Source: Escherichia phage FFH2
DNA: 64,000 nucleotides
Sequence record: KJ190158
Reading direction: 5' to 3' (one strand)
The translations under genes and the position numbers were made by a program. The notes under the pieces are model-generated. The model was not told where the DNA came from and did no database searches. It saw only the letters and a program-made list of their open reading frames with translations. Shown in pieces: positions 28,516 to 45,928 of this stretch (position 1 is the first letter of the stretch; each line of letters begins with the position of its first letter).

Positions 28516-28738
28516 ATCTGGTGCACGATTGCATACCTTGGGTAGTTAATCTCATTACAGAGCGTTTAAGAGCTCCCTACAAACAACTCCATATTTCGAG
28601 CGTAGCGAGAACGCACGTCCGTTTTGACCCAAATCACCATACGCTCGGATTTTAACCAAACCCTCGCGGCGTTTCTGTGGACACATTACCGATCCAGTGA
28701 TAGTATCCACACATAGTTTGTAGAATATGGAGTACACA

Positions 28739-29372: not shown

Positions 29373-29499
29373 CACACAATTAGCTGCCCGGCTAAAGTGC
29401 TGGAAGCACCTATAACACATCTTTCAACTAAATTTCCTACCACCACAATCACTTACCTCCCACACATGACTGTTTGCTTGTTTAGTGAGCAGTCATGCC

Positions 29500-29527
29500 T
29501 TGACATTCTTGCCTATCCTGATAAAAT
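29500..29527 (+). promoter_or_regulatory. sigma70-like promoter firing into the ORF-free region
   Basis: TTGACA-16 nt-TAAAAT, just after a CATGACTG...CAGTCATG hairpin (29465-29497). There is no ORF downstream for about 2.3 kb. Confidence 0.5.
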
Positions 29528-30842
29528 TAAGTTCTTCTCTTTTCTTTTACCGAGTAATTCGGGTTTTCTGTTCTCTTCGGTTTGAAGGGGTATAGAGATA
29601 CACCTGAGTGAACAGGGTGAACAACCGAACATTTGGCTATGGCATTAGCATGGCGAAGCGGACGGGTGACGAAAGAGGGGCCGGAGGACACCAGTCACTG
29701 CCATATGATATATGGGTGATAACCTGAAGAGTCTGAATAAGTGTTTAAGTACCAGTCAGAGGAAAAGGTGAATGGTAGCCGAAGGGGGAGGGGGGTTTCT
29801 TGTATCTTTAATTTGTATATTATGTATACACTTGTAAACCAATCTCATCTGAATTTGTTTACCACACAAAGTGGATAGGGACAAATATTACCTATTAAAC
29901 TTGAATTATTTATAGAAATACCACAACACCACTTAAGTCTTTGATTTTACACACAAATCCTACAGATATTCACCCTCCATATTTAACATACCTGTAACAT
30001 ATTCCATACCCTACCTGACCGATCAATTCACCCAACTACATCCCCATATTTTCCCTGTCTGTACTACCCCTGCCCCGCCGGGAGTCCCGTCATATCTGGC
30101 TTTCCAGCAAATATCACACCCACAAATATCATTGCCTGAAGAGGGTTTCATCCCATAATACATGCCTTACCTGAAGAGCGCTTCATACACCACGTAAATT
30201 TTTTAATTGACCCCCTCCCCGCCGCCGGAGAGGTTGGCTTTTCCCACACAGACCTGAAGAGTCAGCCAGAAATATCTGAACAGGTCCAGCTATGCCACGA
30301 TTTTGTGCTTGTCCTACAGGAGTGCCTCCCTGTCAGGAGCCGGTAGCGACTGGAGTGCTGCCAGGCGGACGAAATGGGAATCATTCTCATTCTTATAACA
30401 ATTCTCAAATATCGAGGCAGTGAGGCAAATTAATAGGTGAGGCCGTTCACACAATGGCACAACATTTGCAACCTATCTTGTGGGAGTGAATGAGAATACC
30501 TATCATTGTGAGAATAGTTATCATTACGGGCAATTTAACATAATACCCATTATGCGCACCACTGGCGATCCATACAGGGATTGATAACATGGGTTACTGT
30601 TTACACACATAACAATTATATTTCTTACTATTTGTGTGGGATATAGTTAGCAGCCGATAGATTAGATATTGACCTGTAGACTTCCAACCGTCCAGACGTC
30701 TAAACGCCCACACAACAAGGGTTATACATACACAACTGAATGTAAACAGGGCCGCAAAAATGCTACCATACAAGCTTGTAAATTTTTCATGCAGCACTTG
30801 ACAAAGAGGAGGAAAACTTGTCTGACACTTTAGACACAATAG

Positions 30843-31168
30843 TGACATAATATGACATAATGGTGACACTGAACATAATTGACATGCCTGACTGTTTACA
30901 TAGCTAACTATTCATACAGAAATGATAAGCCATGCCATTCGTTTGCATGATAATAATTAACTTGTTTACAATAGATGACATAATATAAAAGCAGGGCAAC
31001 TATTAGAAGATCTATAGTTGCCTTGCTTGTTATGTCATGATTAACTAAATACAAGGCAACTATGATCTGATTAATAGTTTGCAGACAAACTATCACGGGG
31101 GTGATGGTTACTGCTTTTATATTATGTCGCGACTCCGTCGCGCCATGCCATTCGTTTGCATAGTTGCC
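30843..31168. repeat. cluster of three short repeat families (TGACATAAT, GGCAACTAT half-sites, 20-mer GCCATGCCATTCGTTTGCAT)
   Basis: TGACATAAT at 30843, 30853 and 30976, plus inverted near-copies at 31029 and 31121. GGCAACTAT/ATAGTTGCC at 30995, 31014, 31055, 31074, 31086 and 31160. The 20-mer at 30929-30948 and 31142-31161. Confidence 0.8.
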
Positions 31169-31778
31169 TTATTGTTACAGATAAAATAATTGTATTGTTA
31201 ATTATTTCTTATCTTTCTCTTAGTCATCTAATGATTCCAGTCAGTATAGTAATGTACAGTAAACATTAGACGACTAAAGATTTCTCTGTTTATTATAACT
31301 TACCGTGACAATTTCAGGCTGTTTACGAAAAATGTTGACACCTGGGCCGATTTATGTTATGCAGTTTACACGAATAATTATTTTATGCAGGTATTGACTA
31401 TTCCGTTATTCTATGGTTGGAATAAATACTTAGCAGACTATAGAATGGTGAGCGTACGTAAATTCTGAGATCTGGCGGCTATAGTTATACTCGATTTTTC
31501 ACGTAGAACACGCTTTTGTTAGTGTGTAAGTGTATGACTTATAAAGATTTTTAGTTGTTGACAAGATATTGAAGATGTGCATCAGGTTAAATTTTGTGCA
31601 ATAGCGGCATTACGTGCAATTTTGAGAGAGAAAACGGGTAAAAATGGCCTTGCTATCACACAATGAAAAATTATGCAATAGTTATTTTACATGTATGTTT
31701 GTACAGTGTGTGGGATTGATGGCTAGTCAATTATTCCACTTGCCAGGCTGGGCCGTTTGTGGTAGGAGAAATACAGAC

Positions 31779-31806
31779 AAAAAGAAAGGGGCCTTTTAAA
31801 GCCCCT
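31779..31806 (-). terminator. rho-independent terminator ending the minus-strand small-gene block
   Basis: Minus strand: GGGGC-tttaaaag-GCCCC followed by TTTCTTTTT. Confidence 0.75.
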
Positions 31807-41292: not shown

Positions 41293-41691
41293 TTATTCGT
41301 GGGCGCATGTCACAATGTGCTTTTTATACCCCAGGTGGGCAGCAAGTGCTGACAAAAACTCATCTTCATAGATCCAGCCGTTGGCAGTGATCCCCATAGC
41401 ATTTAACGCGCTTTCAAGTGCTGCATTGGCCTTATCATAACCGTGACCGCTCGCCTTGCCACCAGTATAACCGTACTTGTTGTTCTTGCTGTCGTGCATC
41501 CAAAAGACGCAATAATGAGTGTTACCGCTGGAGGCGGCATAGTACCGGATCTCCGCTACTTCGTGCAAATTATTATCATCGTCCAGGCCAACCAGATTAT
41601 AAGCCTTGTAAAATCCACGATCACGGCGGCAGTTCTTGACATCAGAAAAAGAGAAGTCGGCATTGTCAAAATTAAAGGTTGTGGTTTTCAT
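41293..41691 (-). CDS. hypothetical protein
   Basis: 132 aa, containing GGKASGHGYDKANAALESAL. A TTGACA-17-TATACT promoter lies upstream. Confidence 0.6.
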   Translation of the reverse strand: MKTTTFNFDNADFSFSDVKNCRRDRGFYKAYNLVGLDDDNNLHEVAEIRYYAASSGNTHYCVFWMHDSKNNKYGYTGGKASGHGYDKANAALESALNAMGITANGWIYEDEFLSALAAHLGYKKHIVTCAHE

Positions 41692-41755
41692 GATTTTATC
41701 CTCTTAGTGTCTTTTGTGATTTCAGTATATTTTGTGTCGGGGCGTATGTCAATAC

Positions 41756-41953
41756 TTATTTTTTATTAAACCAGTGATTGATCTGACCTTTTGTCAGGGC
41801 GCAACGATTAAGTTGGTGCCGGGTATAGCTCTGACCGCGACGGAATTTATAAAGGCCTTGCCCGTTGTTGATGGTTACGTCCACCTGGCAAACCATTTGA
41901 TCGGTGACCACCTGGCGAGCGTTGCGACGTACTTTGATTCCGTAGGCGTTCAT
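41756..41953 (-). CDS. small basic protein
   Basis: 65-aa ORF with an AGAGAGGATAAAA SD and a TTGACA-17-TATTCT promoter. Confidence 0.5.
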   Translation of the reverse strand: MNAYGIKVRRNARQVVTDQMVCQVDVTINNGQGLYKFRRGQSYTRHQLNRCALTKGQINHWFNKK

Positions 41954-42038
41954 GATTTTTTATCCTCTCTGTTAATTAGTGTGGTGTTGTTCACCTTGCG
42001 AGGATAAGAATAACAAGAACTGTCCGAGCTGTCAACTA

Positions 42039-42215
42039 TTAGTTAAAATTATTTTTTGGGCGGAATTCTCCAGCCGCCGCCCCTGCCAGGTTAACCATCA
42101 TTTTTTCGTACTCTTCTTTATATTCCAACGCTCCCGCTATAGCCTTTTCAACCAGGGCGATAGCCTCAGCGTCATTAATAGCTACATTTTCCAGGGGGAT
42201 CATATTACCTTTCAT
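42039..42215 (-). CDS. hypothetical protein (58 aa)
   Basis: MKGNMIPLENVAINDAEAIALVEKAIAGALEYKEEYEKMMVNLAGAAAGEFRPKNNFN with a strong SD (GAAGAGGAGG). Below the ORF-track cutoff. It is the first gene of the small-gene island. Confidence 0.55.
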   Translation of the reverse strand: MKGNMIPLENVAINDAEAIALVEKAIAGALEYKEEYEKMMVNLAGAAAGEFRPKNNFN

Positions 42216-42374
42216 TTTTGTACCTCCTCTTCAATTGTTACCTATCCTATAGCATAGGCCCACCAGGTTTACAAGCCTTCATTCTCTCCTACCTGGTCAG
42301 TTAGGTCCTGCCAGGCTGGCCCCACTAGGTTGCAGCGGTTAGTGCATCAGGTTAGAAAAATTTTTTGAAAAGTG

Positions 42375-42403
42375 TTGACAGCGGCCCCGCCAGGTGGCAC
42401 AAT
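42375..42403 (+). promoter_or_regulatory. plus-strand sigma70-like promoter P1 in the ORF-free island
   Basis: GAAAAATTTTTTGAAAA (UP-like), then TTGACA-17 nt-CACAAT. It is oriented opposite to all flanking genes. Confidence 0.5.
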
Positions 42404-42420
42404 ATACCTATCGAAAGGAC

Positions 42421-42493
42421 GGCAGGCACCGGTGACGGGGGAGACAACCACCGGGGATGGGCGCTGCATAAAATGAGAACGGTTATCATTATC
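42421..42493 (+). repeat. GC-rich structured element copy 1 plus Fur-box-like motif
   Basis: GGCAGGCACCGGTGACGGGGGAGACAACCACCGGGG... contains the CCGGTG/CACCGG stem. It is followed by GAGAACGGTTATCATTATC (42475-42493). Confidence 0.7.
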
Positions 42494-42518
42494 ATTTAAA
42501 AATTTATGCAAAAAATCC

Positions 42519-42546
42519 TTGCTTTCTTTGTCCTGTGTGATACTAT
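42519..42546 (+). promoter_or_regulatory. plus-strand sigma70-like promoter P2 (extended -10)
   Basis: TTGCTT-16 nt-TGaTACTAT. Confidence 0.45.
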
Positions 42547-42555
42547 AATAACAAG

Positions 42556-42629
42556 CCGGGGCAACAGGGGCCGGGAGACAATCACCGGGCCTGCCCGTTA
42601 TTCTGCAAACGAGAATGATTATCATTCAA
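42556..42629 (+). repeat. GC-rich structured element copy 2 plus Fur-box-like motif
   Basis: CCGGGGCAACAGGGGCCGGGAGACAATCACCGGGCCTGCCCG followed by GAGAATGATTATCATTCAA (42611-42629). Confidence 0.7.
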
Positions 42630-42742
42630 AATTCTAAATGAGAACTCCTCGCATTTAATAAATTTAATTAGCACGCTAATTACACTCCGTAACAATTTAC
42701 TATAAAATAGTATCCACTAAAATATTCCCATATAGAAATTTT

Positions 42743-43200
42743 AAAAATCCATTTCTGAAAACGAAAAATCGATTTCGTCCCTAAAAATTTCAGGCCTAGA
42801 TCCGGAACGATTTCCAGAAAATCCGATTCAGAAAACGAAAAACAGATCGAGTACTGAGAAATTTATCGAGAAAAATTTTCAGAAAATCCAAGCCCTGAAA
42901 TGAAAAGTAGATCGAGTACCTGGAAAGCTGCACCGCAACTTCAAGATAGTGGTTAGATTGTTACCATAGAAGGTCAAGGGTAAGTGGAGGAAGTTCTAGT
43001 AGAGGGAGGTTAGCATGTGTGGGAAATCTATAATGGTGGCCTGGAATATAGTGCAAACGATAGGATGAGTTATTCAGCTTGTCGCGCCTACTCTGAAAAA
43101 TCCATTTTAGTTTTCGATCCATTTTCTGATTTTCTAAGAATTTTAAAATATCCGGCCCGGTGAAATATCAAAAGGAGGAAATCCATTTTAGAAATCCCCC
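42743..43200. repeat. A/T-rich iteron field: three tandem ~65-73-nt units plus inverted copies of (A/G)GAAAATCC
   Basis: Units start at 42743, 42816 and 42881 (AGAAAATCCnnTTCnGAAAAYGAAAAnnAGATCGAGTAC...). Further AAATCCATTTT copies lie at 43095, 43177 and 43190, with inverted copies at 43115-43135. Confidence 0.75.
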
Positions 43201-43231
43201 TTATACTTGATATGCCAGGAATTTTCAAGTA

Positions 43232-43561
43232 TCAGCTGTCTTTGTTTTTAGGTTTGTACATGCGCAGAGGTATGGTCTTTGTAACATTCCATTTCCTCAA
43301 CCCTTCCCAGCTCCAGTTGTGGGCGTGATACCCGGTTATGCATGCACTGCTGGCGTGATCATAAGCATAAGAGAACGCTATGTGCACCAGGTGGGGCCAG
43401 TCCTTCCACGGCTGTGGACCGTAAGCCTTTCTCCAACACCGACACAAACTAATTGTCTCAAGAATAGGGAGAATAACAATTCCATATACCACCACCAGAA
43501 TGGTCAGTGCAATGATTGTCAGGAACACATACCCTGCAGTTGAAATGATGATCTCTGTCAT
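43232..43561 (-). CDS. membrane protein
   Basis: The N-terminal IIISTAGYVFLTIIALTILVVVYGIVILPIL is hydrophobic. Last gene of the 64-to-43-kb minus-strand block. Confidence 0.55.
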   Translation of the reverse strand: MTEIIISTAGYVFLTIIALTILVVVYGIVILPILETISLCRCWRKAYGPQPWKDWPHLVHIAFSYAYDHASSACITGYHAHNWSWEGLRKWNVTKTIPLRMYKPKNKDS

Positions 43562-43761
43562 TTGTCGTCCCCTTTCTTACGAATATAGATGTGAGAGCCT
43601 GCCTGTATATAAATTTCTCGACCATCCTCTGCAAAGATATGAAATACACGATCACCTTCGTACTCGATACGAGATATCTTCATAATGGTCTTTCCACCTG
43701 GGATACGGATCTCGTCCCCCACAGCGATGTTCCATGCAGATTTAAGCTTAAACATCTGCAC
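43558..43761 (-). CDS. hypothetical protein
   Basis: 67-aa ORF overlapping its neighbours by a few nt, consistent with translational coupling. Confidence 0.5.
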   Translation of the reverse strand: MQMFKLKSAWNIAVGDEIRIPGGKTIMKISRIEYEGDRVFHIFAEDGREIYIQAGSHIYIRKKGDDK

Positions 43762-43993
43762 CCTCCTTTGGGAACTTGAACTCTGGCATAGCCATATACG
43801 CTACAACAGGGTTGTGATCAAAGTAGAACTGACCGTTAATTATCCCGGTTTTGTCCACATAGTTACCAGATCCTGCAAGAACAACCTCGCAAGCTCCGAA
43901 ATCCACATTGCCATTCTCATCTGCCATGGCTACAATATACTTTCCTAGAGGCATGTTTTTAACGCCGTCTACAAATGTCCACCCTTTGTTCAT
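43748..43993 (-). CDS. hypothetical protein
   Basis: 81-aa ORF with an AGGAGA SD. Confidence 0.55.
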   Translation of the reverse strand: MNKGWTFVDGVKNMPLGKYIVAMADENGNVDFGACEVVLAGSGNYVDKTGIINGQFYFDHNPVVAYMAMPEFKFPKEGADV

Positions 43994-44014
43994 AACTTTA
44001 TCTCCTGGACTTTC

Positions 44015-44347
44015 TTAAGGTAACCAGTAAACAATTTCGCCTTTCAGTTCCATGTCGTTACCGACATAGATTTTCCAGCCATCCATTTTAGCCACTGCAG
44101 GAGTGAAGTCCGAAGAACCACTAACCTCTTTCCAAGTCCCGTAGTCAGGTTGCCAGATATAGAATCCACCTTCCTTGTCCCATGCTCCATATACCACATC
44201 GAGCAGGTTGCCCATTGCAACAATAGTAGGCCGTGGGAACAATGCATCTACAGATGCGCCACAATATCTAGTATCTTTTAAATTGCACTCCCAAAAGATG
44301 TCTGCCAGTGTGGCGGCGATAGCTTTACGTCTTTCTAATGTTACCAT
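44015..44347 (-). CDS. hypothetical protein
   Basis: 110-aa ORF in the co-oriented array. Confidence 0.55.
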   Translation of the reverse strand: MVTLERRKAIAATLADIFWECNLKDTRYCGASVDALFPRPTIVAMGNLLDVVYGAWDKEGGFYIWQPDYGTWKEVSGSSDFTPAVAKMDGWKIYVGNDMELKGEIVYWLP

Positions 44348-44354
44348 ATCATAC

Positions 44355-44546
44355 TCACTTGTTGTTGATAAGTTCTAAAACTTTCTGTCTTACTTTGTCA
44401 AGGTCTGTGGATTCAAAAACTGTACGATATCCCCAACTTTGCCCATAGGAGTGACTGCAATCCCCGTAGCACCATTGCTCAATTTGATAGTATTCAAGGA
44501 ACGGGTGCTGTCTAACTATGATACCATCCCGGTTAAAAATTACCAT
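44355..44546 (-). CDS. hypothetical protein
   Basis: 63-aa ORF in the co-oriented array. Confidence 0.5.
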   Translation of the reverse strand: MVIFNRDGIIVRQHPFLEYYQIEQWCYGDCSHSYGQSWGYRTVFESTDLDKVRQKVLELINNK

Positions 44547-45054: not shown

Positions 45055-45513
45055 TCAACACTTTTTGTACTCCACCACGATAATATCCATATCAAAAGTG
45101 GCAAGGTTAATAACGTCCTCTACGTGCTCCCACTTCAAACCGCCTATGCCGCACCCGATCTTAGGGATGTAGAATGGTAAAGTCGATCCACTGAATACCT
45201 CATTGACTAGCTCAAAGCCTTTCAGGATTGAGAAATATTCAGCATTAGGTCCTGGGTAGAACTGAGTATACAGATTGATTCCGTAGACAATACCTCTCGG
45301 AGATAAGTGCTCCCATCGGGAGAACGCACCCAGTTTACTTAGGCAACCATGTCTGGTCTCTTTGTCAGCTGCCAATGCTTGAGGGAACTCACGGGCAATC
45401 TGTTTTGCTATCCCCTTGCCCATTGTGTGGAAGCAGTTACAACCGTGGATCAGGTGACCAGCACCACTCTTAAAAAGGGAGATTAAATCTCCCTCTACAG
45501 TATCAATAATCAC
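45055..45513 (-). CDS. Macro domain (ADP-ribose binding / ADP-ribosylhydrolase) protein
   Basis: VEGDLISLFKSGAGHLIHGCNCFHTMGKGIAKQIAREFP and PKIGCGIGGLKWEHV match the macrodomain GD...N...G.GIA and IG.G.GG motifs. The start is set at GTG 45513 (GAGGAG 11 nt upstream). Confidence 0.75.
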   Translation of the reverse strand: MIIDTVEGDLISLFKSGAGHLIHGCNCFHTMGKGIAKQIAREFPQALAADKETRHGCLSKLGAFSRWEHLSPRGIVYGINLYTQFYPGPNAEYFSILKGFELVNEVFSGSTLPFYIPKIGCGIGGLKWEHVEDVINLATFDMDIIVVEYKKC

Positions 45514-45928
45514 GGTATGCCAGCTCCTCTTCCACAATTTCAAAAAACTCATCCCAACCTTGTGGCATATTTGAGTTACCGAAGTGGCTTTCATAGTAAA
45601 GGTTCTTACCGCTAGGAAGGTAGAAATCTGTTACCTCATAAAATCCACAATCGTCGCACTCACCTTCTTCAAACTTGGCCTTAACCTTAATACCGAGGAA
45701 GGTGAAAAGTTTATGGACATCTTCAGTTTCGAACTCCCAGGGAATGTTGTTTTCCGCATCGGTGTAGAACTGGATCAGCAGACCATTGTCCAGTTTACCA
45801 AAATACTCTGTGAAGTAACTTCCTTCCCAGAAATCTTTATGACAAATAATATCCATGCGTTTGCCCATAATAATGGTGTGAGCGTTTTGGGCATCGTCAC
45901 GAATCAGTTTTGGCATTTCATAGATCAT
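45503..45928 (-). CDS. hypothetical protein
   Basis: 141-aa ORF that overlaps the macro gene start by 11 nt. Confidence 0.55.
   Translation of the reverse strand: MIYEMPKLIRDDAQNAHTIIMGKRMDIICHKDFWEGSYFTEYFGKLDNGLLIQFYTDAENNIPWEFETEDVHKLFTFLGIKVKAKFEEGECDDCGFYEVTDFYLPSGKNLYYESHFGNSNMPQGWDEFFEIVEEELAYRDY

Follow-up and report, generated by a model that had tools for sequence, protein, structure and literature searches.

The subject of this analysis is a noncoding gap of about 1 kb, and the field of repeats within it, in a stretch of 64,000 nucleotides (nt) of Escherichia phage FFH2 (record KJ190158), which as a whole is called the window. Judged by comparative sequence analysis, the repeat field is the core of a cis-acting DNA module of ~1 kb, conserved among the Vequintavirinae and also, with repeats of another kind, in Phapecoctavirus. 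The most likely function of this module, and our best guess at a probability of roughly 40%, would be that of a transcription-activated, iteron-containing replication origin. A replication origin had already been proposed for the field from the letters of the sequence and its open reading frames (ORFs); of that original prediction, the iterons and the A/T-rich tract stand, and they prove to be noncoding, under strong constraint within the genus, and part of an architecture that recurs across genera, but a DnaA box and the adjacency to the replication genes do not stand, and no initiator gene was recognized beside the field. The module appears to be undescribed; for these phages, we found neither the gap nor an origin nor Fur boxes described in the literature. 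To our knowledge, rV5-like phages, which are widely used in biocontrol and therapy, lack a defined cis-acting element for replication or control. The result is a precise map of a conserved module spanning several genera.

The window belongs to a Vequintavirus, i.e., an rV5-like myophage with a genome of ~137 kb. A megablast search with positions 41500 to 44500 returned 122 phage records, nearly all of them Escherichia phages of the genus Vequintavirus with 90 to 98% identity. According to the ORF list, the whole gap (42216..43231, no strand assigned) lies between the minus-strand genes 42039..42215 and 43232..43561, and the minus strand carries every gene around it. No convincing gene is found inside, as the calls vary with the record of each relative and there is none in phage B9-1.

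Tandem units and their conservation

The three tandem units announced by the original prediction at 42743, 42816, and 42881 are real. A repeat search recovers them as a three-copy family of 62 nt at 42726, 42800, and 42865 (spacing of 74 and 65, identity of 61 to 73%), and in local alignments unit 2 matches unit 1 with z = 9.1 and unit 3 with z = 8.1, with 0 of 2,000 shuffles as good; compared directly, units 1 and 3 are only weakly similar (z = 2.0). All three lie on the plus strand. Unit 1 (42743..42815, AAAAATCCATTTCTGAAAACGAAAAATCGATTTCGTCC) is almost invariant within the genus, as is, nearly, unit 2 (42816..42880, AGAAAATCCGATTCAGAAAACGAAAAACAGATCGAGTAC), the best copy, while the core of unit 3 (42881..42921, AGAAAATCCAAGCCCTGAAATGAAAAGTAGATCGAGTACC) has a variable first box and a conserved last box. 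The three motifs said to be contained in each unit are present exactly in unit 2 alone. The other two are degenerate, with AAAAATCC in unit 1, where TCGATTTCGTCC also replaces AGATCGAGTAC, and GAAATGAAAA in unit 3.

A variable spacer (42922..43093, no strand), which is the least conserved part of the alignment described below and contains indels, separates the units from a second repeat cluster (43094..43200, no strand). This cluster holds the additional direct and inverted copies that had been predicted, namely, AAATCCATTT-type boxes at 43098, 43117, and 43179 and an inverted AGAAAATC at 43128 to 43135, so that positions 43115 to 43135 read as ATCCATTTT plus inverted AGAAAATC, as claimed; AAATATC follows at 43146 and 43163. 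In the entire 64 kb, AAATCCATTT occurs exactly three times (42745, 43098, and 43179) and AGATCGAGTAC exactly twice (42844 and 42909), always within the field. There are six to seven copies of the boxes inside 450 bp, the clustering of direct repeats in noncoding DNA that is looked for in iteron origins.

Conservation within the genus was assessed in a 3.4-kb alignment of 11 Vequintavirus genomes. Pairwise identity is 0.94 to 1.00 over the promoters, leaders, and palindromes (42366 to 42665), 0.89 to 0.97 over the three units (42716 to 42915), and 0.91 in the second repeat cluster (43116 to 43165), compared with 0.69 to 0.80 in the spacer (42916 to 43115) and 0.75 to 0.93 in the coding sequence of the flanking genes. 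Taken together, the blocks 42366 to 42665, 42716 to 42915, and 43097 to 43200 show values of 0.89 to 1.00. Column by column, units 1 and 2 and the segment 43097 to 43200 are almost invariant, and the spacer is full of substitutions and indels.

The repeats could in principle be duplication leftovers in decayed genes or neutral filler, with no present function. Small ORFs are annotated here in some relatives, and one of them has a PHROG match that goes back to annotations of this sort. However, records differ in their ORF calls, the flanking genes are less conserved than the repeat blocks, in which third-position-like variation is absent, and the layout is kept in genera that have no other nucleotide similarity. 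This reading is hardly credible and is already contradicted by the conservation pattern. The ORF with the PHROG match, of 92 codons on the minus strand (42347 to 42625), is a hypothetical protein in some relatives, and it matches phrog_14993 because that PHROG was built from the annotations of such relatives. It overlaps promoter P2, a leader element, and two Fur-like boxes (all described below), and its counterpart sequence is noncoding in other genera; it is probably a false gene call.

Comparison of the repeats across relatives, which the original prediction had suggested as a check, gives near-invariant blocks within the genus and a layout that is kept between genera. By sensitive blastn, most of the gap can be aligned only inside Vequintavirus. 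The segment 42510 to 42667 alone matches beyond it, in Phapecoctavirus, Mydovirus, Seunavirus, Certrevirus, an Erwinia phage, and others, always in unannotated sequence. Syntenic gaps of 0.7 to 1.2 kb are present in phages ESCO5, KpS8, CR3, and SSE121, and in all, eight lineages besides that of the window, representing five or more other genera, have the same layout with comparable spacing. On the plus strand, the shared order starts with two to five sigma70-like promoters, a short leader with GAGACAAWCACCG, and one to four palindromes AATGAGAATnATTCTCATT, 29 bp apart if there are several; it continues with an A/T-rich stretch containing another promoter, the three tandem units, and a variable spacer; and it ends with a cluster of AAAWCCATTTYGA-type (AAAWCCATTT) boxes and two to five copies of AAATATC.

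In a motif map anchored on the first palindrome, the ends of the three units fall at +135, +202, and +277 in SSE121 and lineage L019, at +167, +234, and +308 in KpS8, at +177, +240, and +318 in CR3, L015, and phiTE, and at +193, +245, and +310 in the window, with the AAATATC cluster at about +520 to +630 in every lineage. The 27 units of nine lineages align on a 42-nt core, agAAAATaCgaTtTnGAAAtTGAAAAntCGATCGAGacCC, with three units per genome throughout and a spacing of 63 to 78 bp. Lineages L011 and L016 have CTCAAGTCC in place of CGATCGAG, and ESCO5 has unrelated repeats in place of the units, within the same frame. In iteron plasmids and lambdoid phages, pairs of initiator and iteron change the repeat sequence between lineages while the layout stays. 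By this analogy, changing repeat families within a fixed frame would be expected of an iteron-type origin, and conservation of the architecture across genera would likewise be predicted for an origin or another cis-acting element.

The units are more likely sites on double-stranded DNA than on RNA, because they lack RNA structure and because the conserved last box is partly palindromic (TCGATCGA) in many of them. The unit region folds no better than shuffled sequences on either strand (z = -0.19 and -0.70), and structured RNA was rejected as an explanation on account of these near-zero scores. A CRISPR-like mini-array was also discarded, since similarity spans the whole unit without any alternation of repeat and spacer. 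We consider it very unlikely that the promoter candidate ahead of unit 1 (P3, below) transcribes the units into an unstructured, A-rich noncoding RNA that titrates a host or defense protein, as a sponge or antitoxin mimic. In its favor, several genera have a sigma70-like promoter immediately before unit 1, and a relative, the Certrevirus phiTE, carries a known repeat RNA decoy, pseudo-ToxI (PMC3475682). That locus lies elsewhere in phiTE, though, near the tRNA genes and the terminase, which led us to reject identity with it, and our units measure 63 to 78 nt and not ~36 nt as do the pseudoknot repeats of pseudo-ToxI. The absence of structure above that of shuffles on both strands, the lack of Rfam matches and terminators, and the palindrome in the conserved box, which suits a double-stranded DNA site, also speak against such an RNA. 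The Rfam search gave no match at E ≤ 1 between 40 and 46 kb of the window or in four other genera, and a tRNA scan of the window and of four other genera was likewise negative.

Promoter-like sites, leaders, and Fur-box-like palindromes

The promoters P1, P2, and P3 are predictions, all on the plus strand. P1 (42375..42403; TTGACA-17-CACAAT with an extended -10 TG) scores 10/12 in the promoter scan and is nearly invariant in the 11 genus members. P2 (42519..42549; TTGCTT followed by a TG-extended TACTAT/TATAAT) was read from the sequence and from the alignment of nine lineages, where the spacer varies and the -35 TTG and -10 TAnnnT show little or no variation; its copy in the window fails the -35 criterion of the scan, and the homologues in KpS8 and SSE121 are called by it. 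For P3, the scan gives two weak candidates inside the A/T-rich tract (42679 to 42708 and 42696 to 42723), with stronger equivalents just before unit 1 in KpS8 (TTGACT-17-GATACT) and SSE121 (TTGACA-18-GAAAAT). Promoter-like sites of the kind invoked by the original prediction do lie beside the field, all on the plus strand and pointing into the A/T-rich tract and the units. Over the gap as a whole, almost all predicted sites share this orientation, antisense to the neighboring genes. The scans of SSE121 and KpS8 likewise give plus-strand sites across the gap and minus-strand ones only at its edges, and in the window minus-strand consensus promoters resume just downstream of the gap, at 42035 and 41752. 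No terminator-like site was found in the gap of the window.

Promoter, leader, and Fur-like box form a module that is duplicated in the window. Leader element 1 (42405..42470, plus strand) was recognized as a repeat family member and by alignment with element 2, of which it is a paralogue; its core, GGGAGACAACCACCGGG, lies at 42439 to 42455, and positions 42416 to 42465 are 100% identical in the 11 genomes. Leader element 2 (42555..42606, plus strand) shows 72 to 88% similarity across genera and contains the conserved GAGACAAWCACCG (42573 to 42589) within a 6-bp stem. This stem, ATRGCG/CGYYAT in RNAalifold, has AU-to-GC double changes in three sequences and several G-U pairs, which favors the plus strand, and the fold has z = -2.76 with a consensus energy of only -1.6 kcal/mol. 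We regard this as weak evidence for a plus-strand transcript through leader element 2.

Other genera have a further conserved element of ~70 nt, ACGCCACCCCACGGCGAAAAGGCGGGGCTAAC...GGAAGGTGGATCGCCGGTAG, placed after its own plus-strand promoter some 140 to 190 nt to the left of the anchor palindrome. It occurs in L006-L009, L011, L013, L015, L016, L019, L021-L024, and L027 and is absent from the window, where the duplicate P2 leader is found instead. Its consensus fold of -14.7 kcal/mol includes a terminal hairpin of variable length and one covarying AU/GC pair, with no Rfam match, and part of it scores as terminator-like on the minus strand. In addition, the gaps of KpS8 (MENTKVITSETMV...), SSE121, and ESCO5 contain a small plus-strand gene of ~60 to 70 codons with its own promoter (L007, 1566-1757; L009, ~1598-1780; L006, 1629-1841), antisense to all its neighbors and without a counterpart in the window.

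The most unexpected element of the module is an array of Fur-box-like palindromes. Site 1 (42469..42497) consists of TGAGAACGGTTATCA followed by TTATCATTATCATT, and sites 2 (42610 to 42624, CGAGAATGATTATCA) and 3 (42639 to 42653, degenerate) lie 29 bp apart within 42607..42655, a spacing also seen in CR3, ESCO5, and KpS8. The consensus of the Fur box is given as a 19-bp sequence, GATAATGATAATCATTATC, or in 7-1-7 form, TGATAATnATTATCA, with TGATAAT as the half-site. The two best matches of the window to the 19-bp Escherichia coli consensus, at 42475 (16/19, on the minus strand, within site 1) and at 42611 (15/19), are both in the gap. Compared with the bacterial box, the phage palindrome TGAGAATnATTCTCA is one position off per half-site, with TGAGAAT for TGATAAT, and many phage copies have TGATAAT in one of the halves; the palindromes of the relatives have one to two mismatches to TGAGAATnATTCTCA.

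More than 120 bacterial genomes, spread over many phyla, also carry the exact phage palindrome, and in 6 of 15 sampled bacterial loci it lies 16 to 200 bp upstream of the start of a gene of iron-uptake type. Two of these six genes encode ECF sigma factors; the others encode an ABC ATPase and a Peripla_BP_2 binding protein, both of siderophore-type ABC genes, a P19 iron-transport protein (PF10634, Fe2+), and the Plug of a TonB receptor. By consensus match and genomic context, then, the palindrome is a Fur box. A role as RNA hairpin was rejected: the half-sites vary independently (TGAGAAT, TGATAAT, TGCGAAT) without compensation, which argues for a protein site rather than a hairpin. We infer that host Fur may bind it. 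Unlike bacterial Fur boxes, these sites belong to a virulent phage and form arrays with a spacing of 29 bp; they do not cover a -35 or -10 but follow one promoter and precede the next. Among IMG/VR contigs that are unrelated to rV5-like phages, L014 and L026 have tandem Fur-type palindromes (e.g., AATGAGAATGATTCTCAAAATGAGAATGATTCTCATT), and L012, of 347 kb, has one full palindrome and a partial second one ~70 bp downstream; from these matches, Fur boxes in noncoding phage DNA may be more widespread.

These features could also belong to a hub or boundary for the control of transcription, in which Fur-gated plus-strand promoters would make short antisense or leader RNAs that collide with minus-strand read-through and separate two temporal units. 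The units and the second cluster would serve a phage regulator as operators and would play no direct part in replication. In favor of this, the flanking genes are all on the minus strand, yet the gap has two to five promoter-like sites on the plus strand; it also has in its favor the duplicated module, the covariation and G-U pairs of the leader stem, the restart of minus-strand consensus promoters at 42035 and 41752, and a skew change point that falls exactly at the gap with gene orientation unchanged (below). On the other hand, there is the lack of a terminator-like site, three phased 42-bp composite sites plus a distant cluster of half-sites over 450 bp exceed what known phage operators need, and the A/T-rich minimum of duplex stability is left unexplained. 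Such a hub is compatible with a transcription-activated origin and does not exclude it. We rank it next after the origin, as a possible reading that we hold only tentatively, and the two are not mutually exclusive.

A putative replication origin

The A/T-rich tract between the palindromes and unit 1 (42626..42742, no strand; 25.6% GC) is a candidate DNA-unwinding element. The A/T richness noted in the original prediction is borne out by nearest-neighbor energies, according to which, of all 60-bp duplexes in the 64 kb, the one at 42689 to 42748, immediately to the left of unit 1, is the least stable, and the second least stable 100-mer starts at 42653; the remaining minima fall in a second noncoding region at 29.4 to 31.8 kb. 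Inside the tract there is also a palindrome, TAATTAGC-ac-GCTAATTA (42665 to 42682).

If the module is an origin, host RNA polymerase would fire from the sigma70 promoters P1, P2, and P3, opposing the surrounding genes, and transcription would cross the array of host Fur sites to enter the least stable duplex at 42626 to 42742. A protein, probably phage encoded, would bind the three 42-bp composite sites of units 1 to 3 and may also bind the related half-sites of the second cluster (43094 to 43200). The A/T-rich DNA would then open, with or without an RNA primer, and the T7-type primase-helicase and DNA polymerase of the phage could start. An elaboration that we consider doubtful is an iron-gated origin, in which Fur on the phased box array would control the antisense transcription into the unwinding element and couple the start of replication to host iron; in a variant of the same idea, amplified phage DNA would titrate Fur and derepress host iron uptake. 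Such an arrangement would be conserved in Vequintavirinae and Phapecoctavirus (Stephanstirmvirinae); the same Fur boxes are also present inside the terminal repeat of Klebsiella phage KPP-1 (below) and, as tandem arrays of palindromes, in the unrelated phage contigs mentioned above. If the boxes are bound, the program of a virulent phage would be linked to the iron status of its host, which is relevant in the gut and at infection sites. If the module is an origin, it would offer an engineering handle, e.g., for origin-dependent amplification of plasmids or for interference, and the 42-bp core could serve as bait for the binding protein.

The proposed layout resembles three known types of origin. 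The primary origin of T7 has two tandem promoters, phi1.1A and phi1.1B, followed by an A/T-rich stretch. The module described here likewise has predicted tandem promoters leading into the most A/T-rich, least stable DNA, with the same type of replisome (gp4-like primase-helicase and PolA-type polymerase), and it is intergenic and ~9 to 15% away from the genome end, if the ends are at 29.4 to 31.8 kb as in Klebsiella phage KPP-1 (below). It differs in that its putative promoters are of host sigma70 type and oppose the flanking genes, whereas those of T7 are served by the phage RNA polymerase, and in having Fur boxes and three large composite repeats, of which T7 has none. The origin of lambda has four 19-bp iterons beside an A/T-rich region and is activated by transcription. 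With lambda-like and theta-plasmid iteron origins, the module shares direct repeats beside an A/T-rich region, nearby predicted transcription, and repeats that change while the layout stays, but its 42-bp cores are 63 to 78 bp apart, in contrast to iterons of 17 to 22 bp in helical phase, and it is neither inside nor beside a recognizable initiator gene and has no conserved DnaA box. Finally, oriF and oriG of T4, which are R-loop primed, also combine a promoter with easily melted DNA in a large virulent phage with its own replisome, but they use MotA-dependent middle promoters and have no iterons.

A number of observations weigh against an origin. The DnaA-like 9-mer on which the original prediction leaned, GTATCCACT (42710 to 42718, 7/9 match), does exist, but it lies in a promoter spacer within the A/T-rich tract and differs in 8 of 10 close relatives, so that a conserved DnaA box was rejected and that part of the argument fails. 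Host DnaA boxes are not obligatory for phage origins. The field was also said to lie directly downstream of the replication module. It is downstream in the minus-strand sense, but ~8.5 kb and more than 20 small genes separate it from the DNA polymerase gene, which ends near 51.7 kb, and no initiator-like or DNA-binding protein was recognized among the ten neighboring proteins by PHROG, Pfam, or solved relatives. P2 and P3 are weaker matches in the window than in the other genera. No satellites, plasmids, or chromosomal elements with these repeats were found in E. coli genomes. With its repeats, Fur-like boxes, AAATATC copies, and comparably unstable DNA, the noncoding region at 29.4 to 31.8 kb is a rival that looks just as much like an origin. 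In the rV5 paper, the origin was left undefined (PMC3606486).

The nucleotide skews likewise weigh against an origin. Change points of plus-strand skew were sought in the uniformly minus-strand block from 31800 to 64000 of the window, with 300 permutations. For GC skew, the best one is at 43.3 to 43.55 kb, where the value passes from -0.064 on the left to -0.138 on the right (equaled in strength by 5 of the 300 permutations); for AT skew, it is at 42.3 kb (equaled by 28 of 300). Skew thus shifts at 42.3 to 43.5 kb even though gene orientation does not change, and the gap is a compositional boundary. The sign of the change is opposite to that of a bacterial-type bidirectional origin, and a transcription unit boundary would explain it equally well; in rV5, skew was found to follow transcription (PMC3606486).

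The 11-mer ATAGTATCCAC recurs exactly at 28700, as the original prediction had pointed out. This second copy (28700 to 28710) lies within gatagtatccacacatagtttgtagaatatggagtacacaATG, ~30 bp upstream of an ATG at ~28739.

The second noncoding region and neighboring genes

Blocks of plus- and minus-strand genes converge on a noncoding region of ~2.4 kb (29400 to 31800), which is probably the "non-coding" box of the rV5 paper. It has AAATATC at 30109, 30124, 30270, and 30407 (cluster at 30109 to 30413), Fur-like palindromes at 30375, 30393, 30491, and 30509 (to 30523) with 18-bp spacing, GACATAAT repeats with an 11-bp period (30833 to 30868), four copies of CCTGAAGAG, and several stretches that rank among the least stable DNA in the window. 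In the Mydovirus KPP-1, PhageTerm places the termini at 116316 and 116829, giving a direct terminal repeat of 514 bp. The site of this repeat is the convergent noncoding region of that phage, where AAATATC repeats lie on the left edge and Fur-like palindromes in the right portion, and it corresponds to 29.4 to 31.8 kb of the window and not to the gap at 42216 to 43231.

The gap and the end region share two families of motifs, AAATATC and the Fur-like palindromes. This raises the possibility that the gap is another kind of DNA transaction site, such as a packaging recognition site, a recombination hotspot, or an anchoring or partition-like site, with AAATATC and the boxes bound by a protein of the genome ends. 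The same two families bracket the 514-bp terminal repeat of KPP-1, and the distance from the Fur box to AAATATC in the gap (520 to 560 bp) resembles the length of that repeat. However, the order of the motifs differs between the two regions, one Vequintavirus has been reported as circularly permuted without a mapped site, and the read-start peaks of KPP-1 are seen only in the other noncoding region. A genome end or pac site at the gap was accordingly not supported. Because the KPP-1 ends map to the other region, the gap is probably not a genome end, and the packaging alternative is therefore weakened; we deem a transaction site of this kind unlikely. The start of the record of phage ETEC-TG inside its gap is uninformative, as the record is circular.

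The genes for the DNA polymerase, primase-helicase, a helicase, two methyltransferases, and rIIA/B were located at ~51.7 to 64 kb by synteny and exact gene lengths in comparison with phage WalterGehring. The replisome of rV5 is T7-like, with a primase-helicase and a PolA-type polymerase (PMC3606486), in agreement with the synteny seen here. The ten proteins neighboring the gap fall only into PHROGs of unknown function or have no Pfam match, and one of them, of 408 amino acids, has no solved relative.

Some labels of the matching records look doubtful with respect to host or replicon. Sixteen records titled "Campylobacter phage" (MG0656xx), 15 of them with Campylobacter jejuni as host, match the window, with 94 to 96% identity among the matches listed. 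The sole plasmid match to the repeats, the PLSDB "plasmid" CP057073.1 (137,565 bp), is an entire rV5-like phage genome and not a case of borrowed repeats. Lastly, a 179-amino-acid protein encoded at 45055 to 45594 on the minus strand resembles the beginning of the Macro domain (PF01661) and also has a match to a PHROG with phosphatase annotation.

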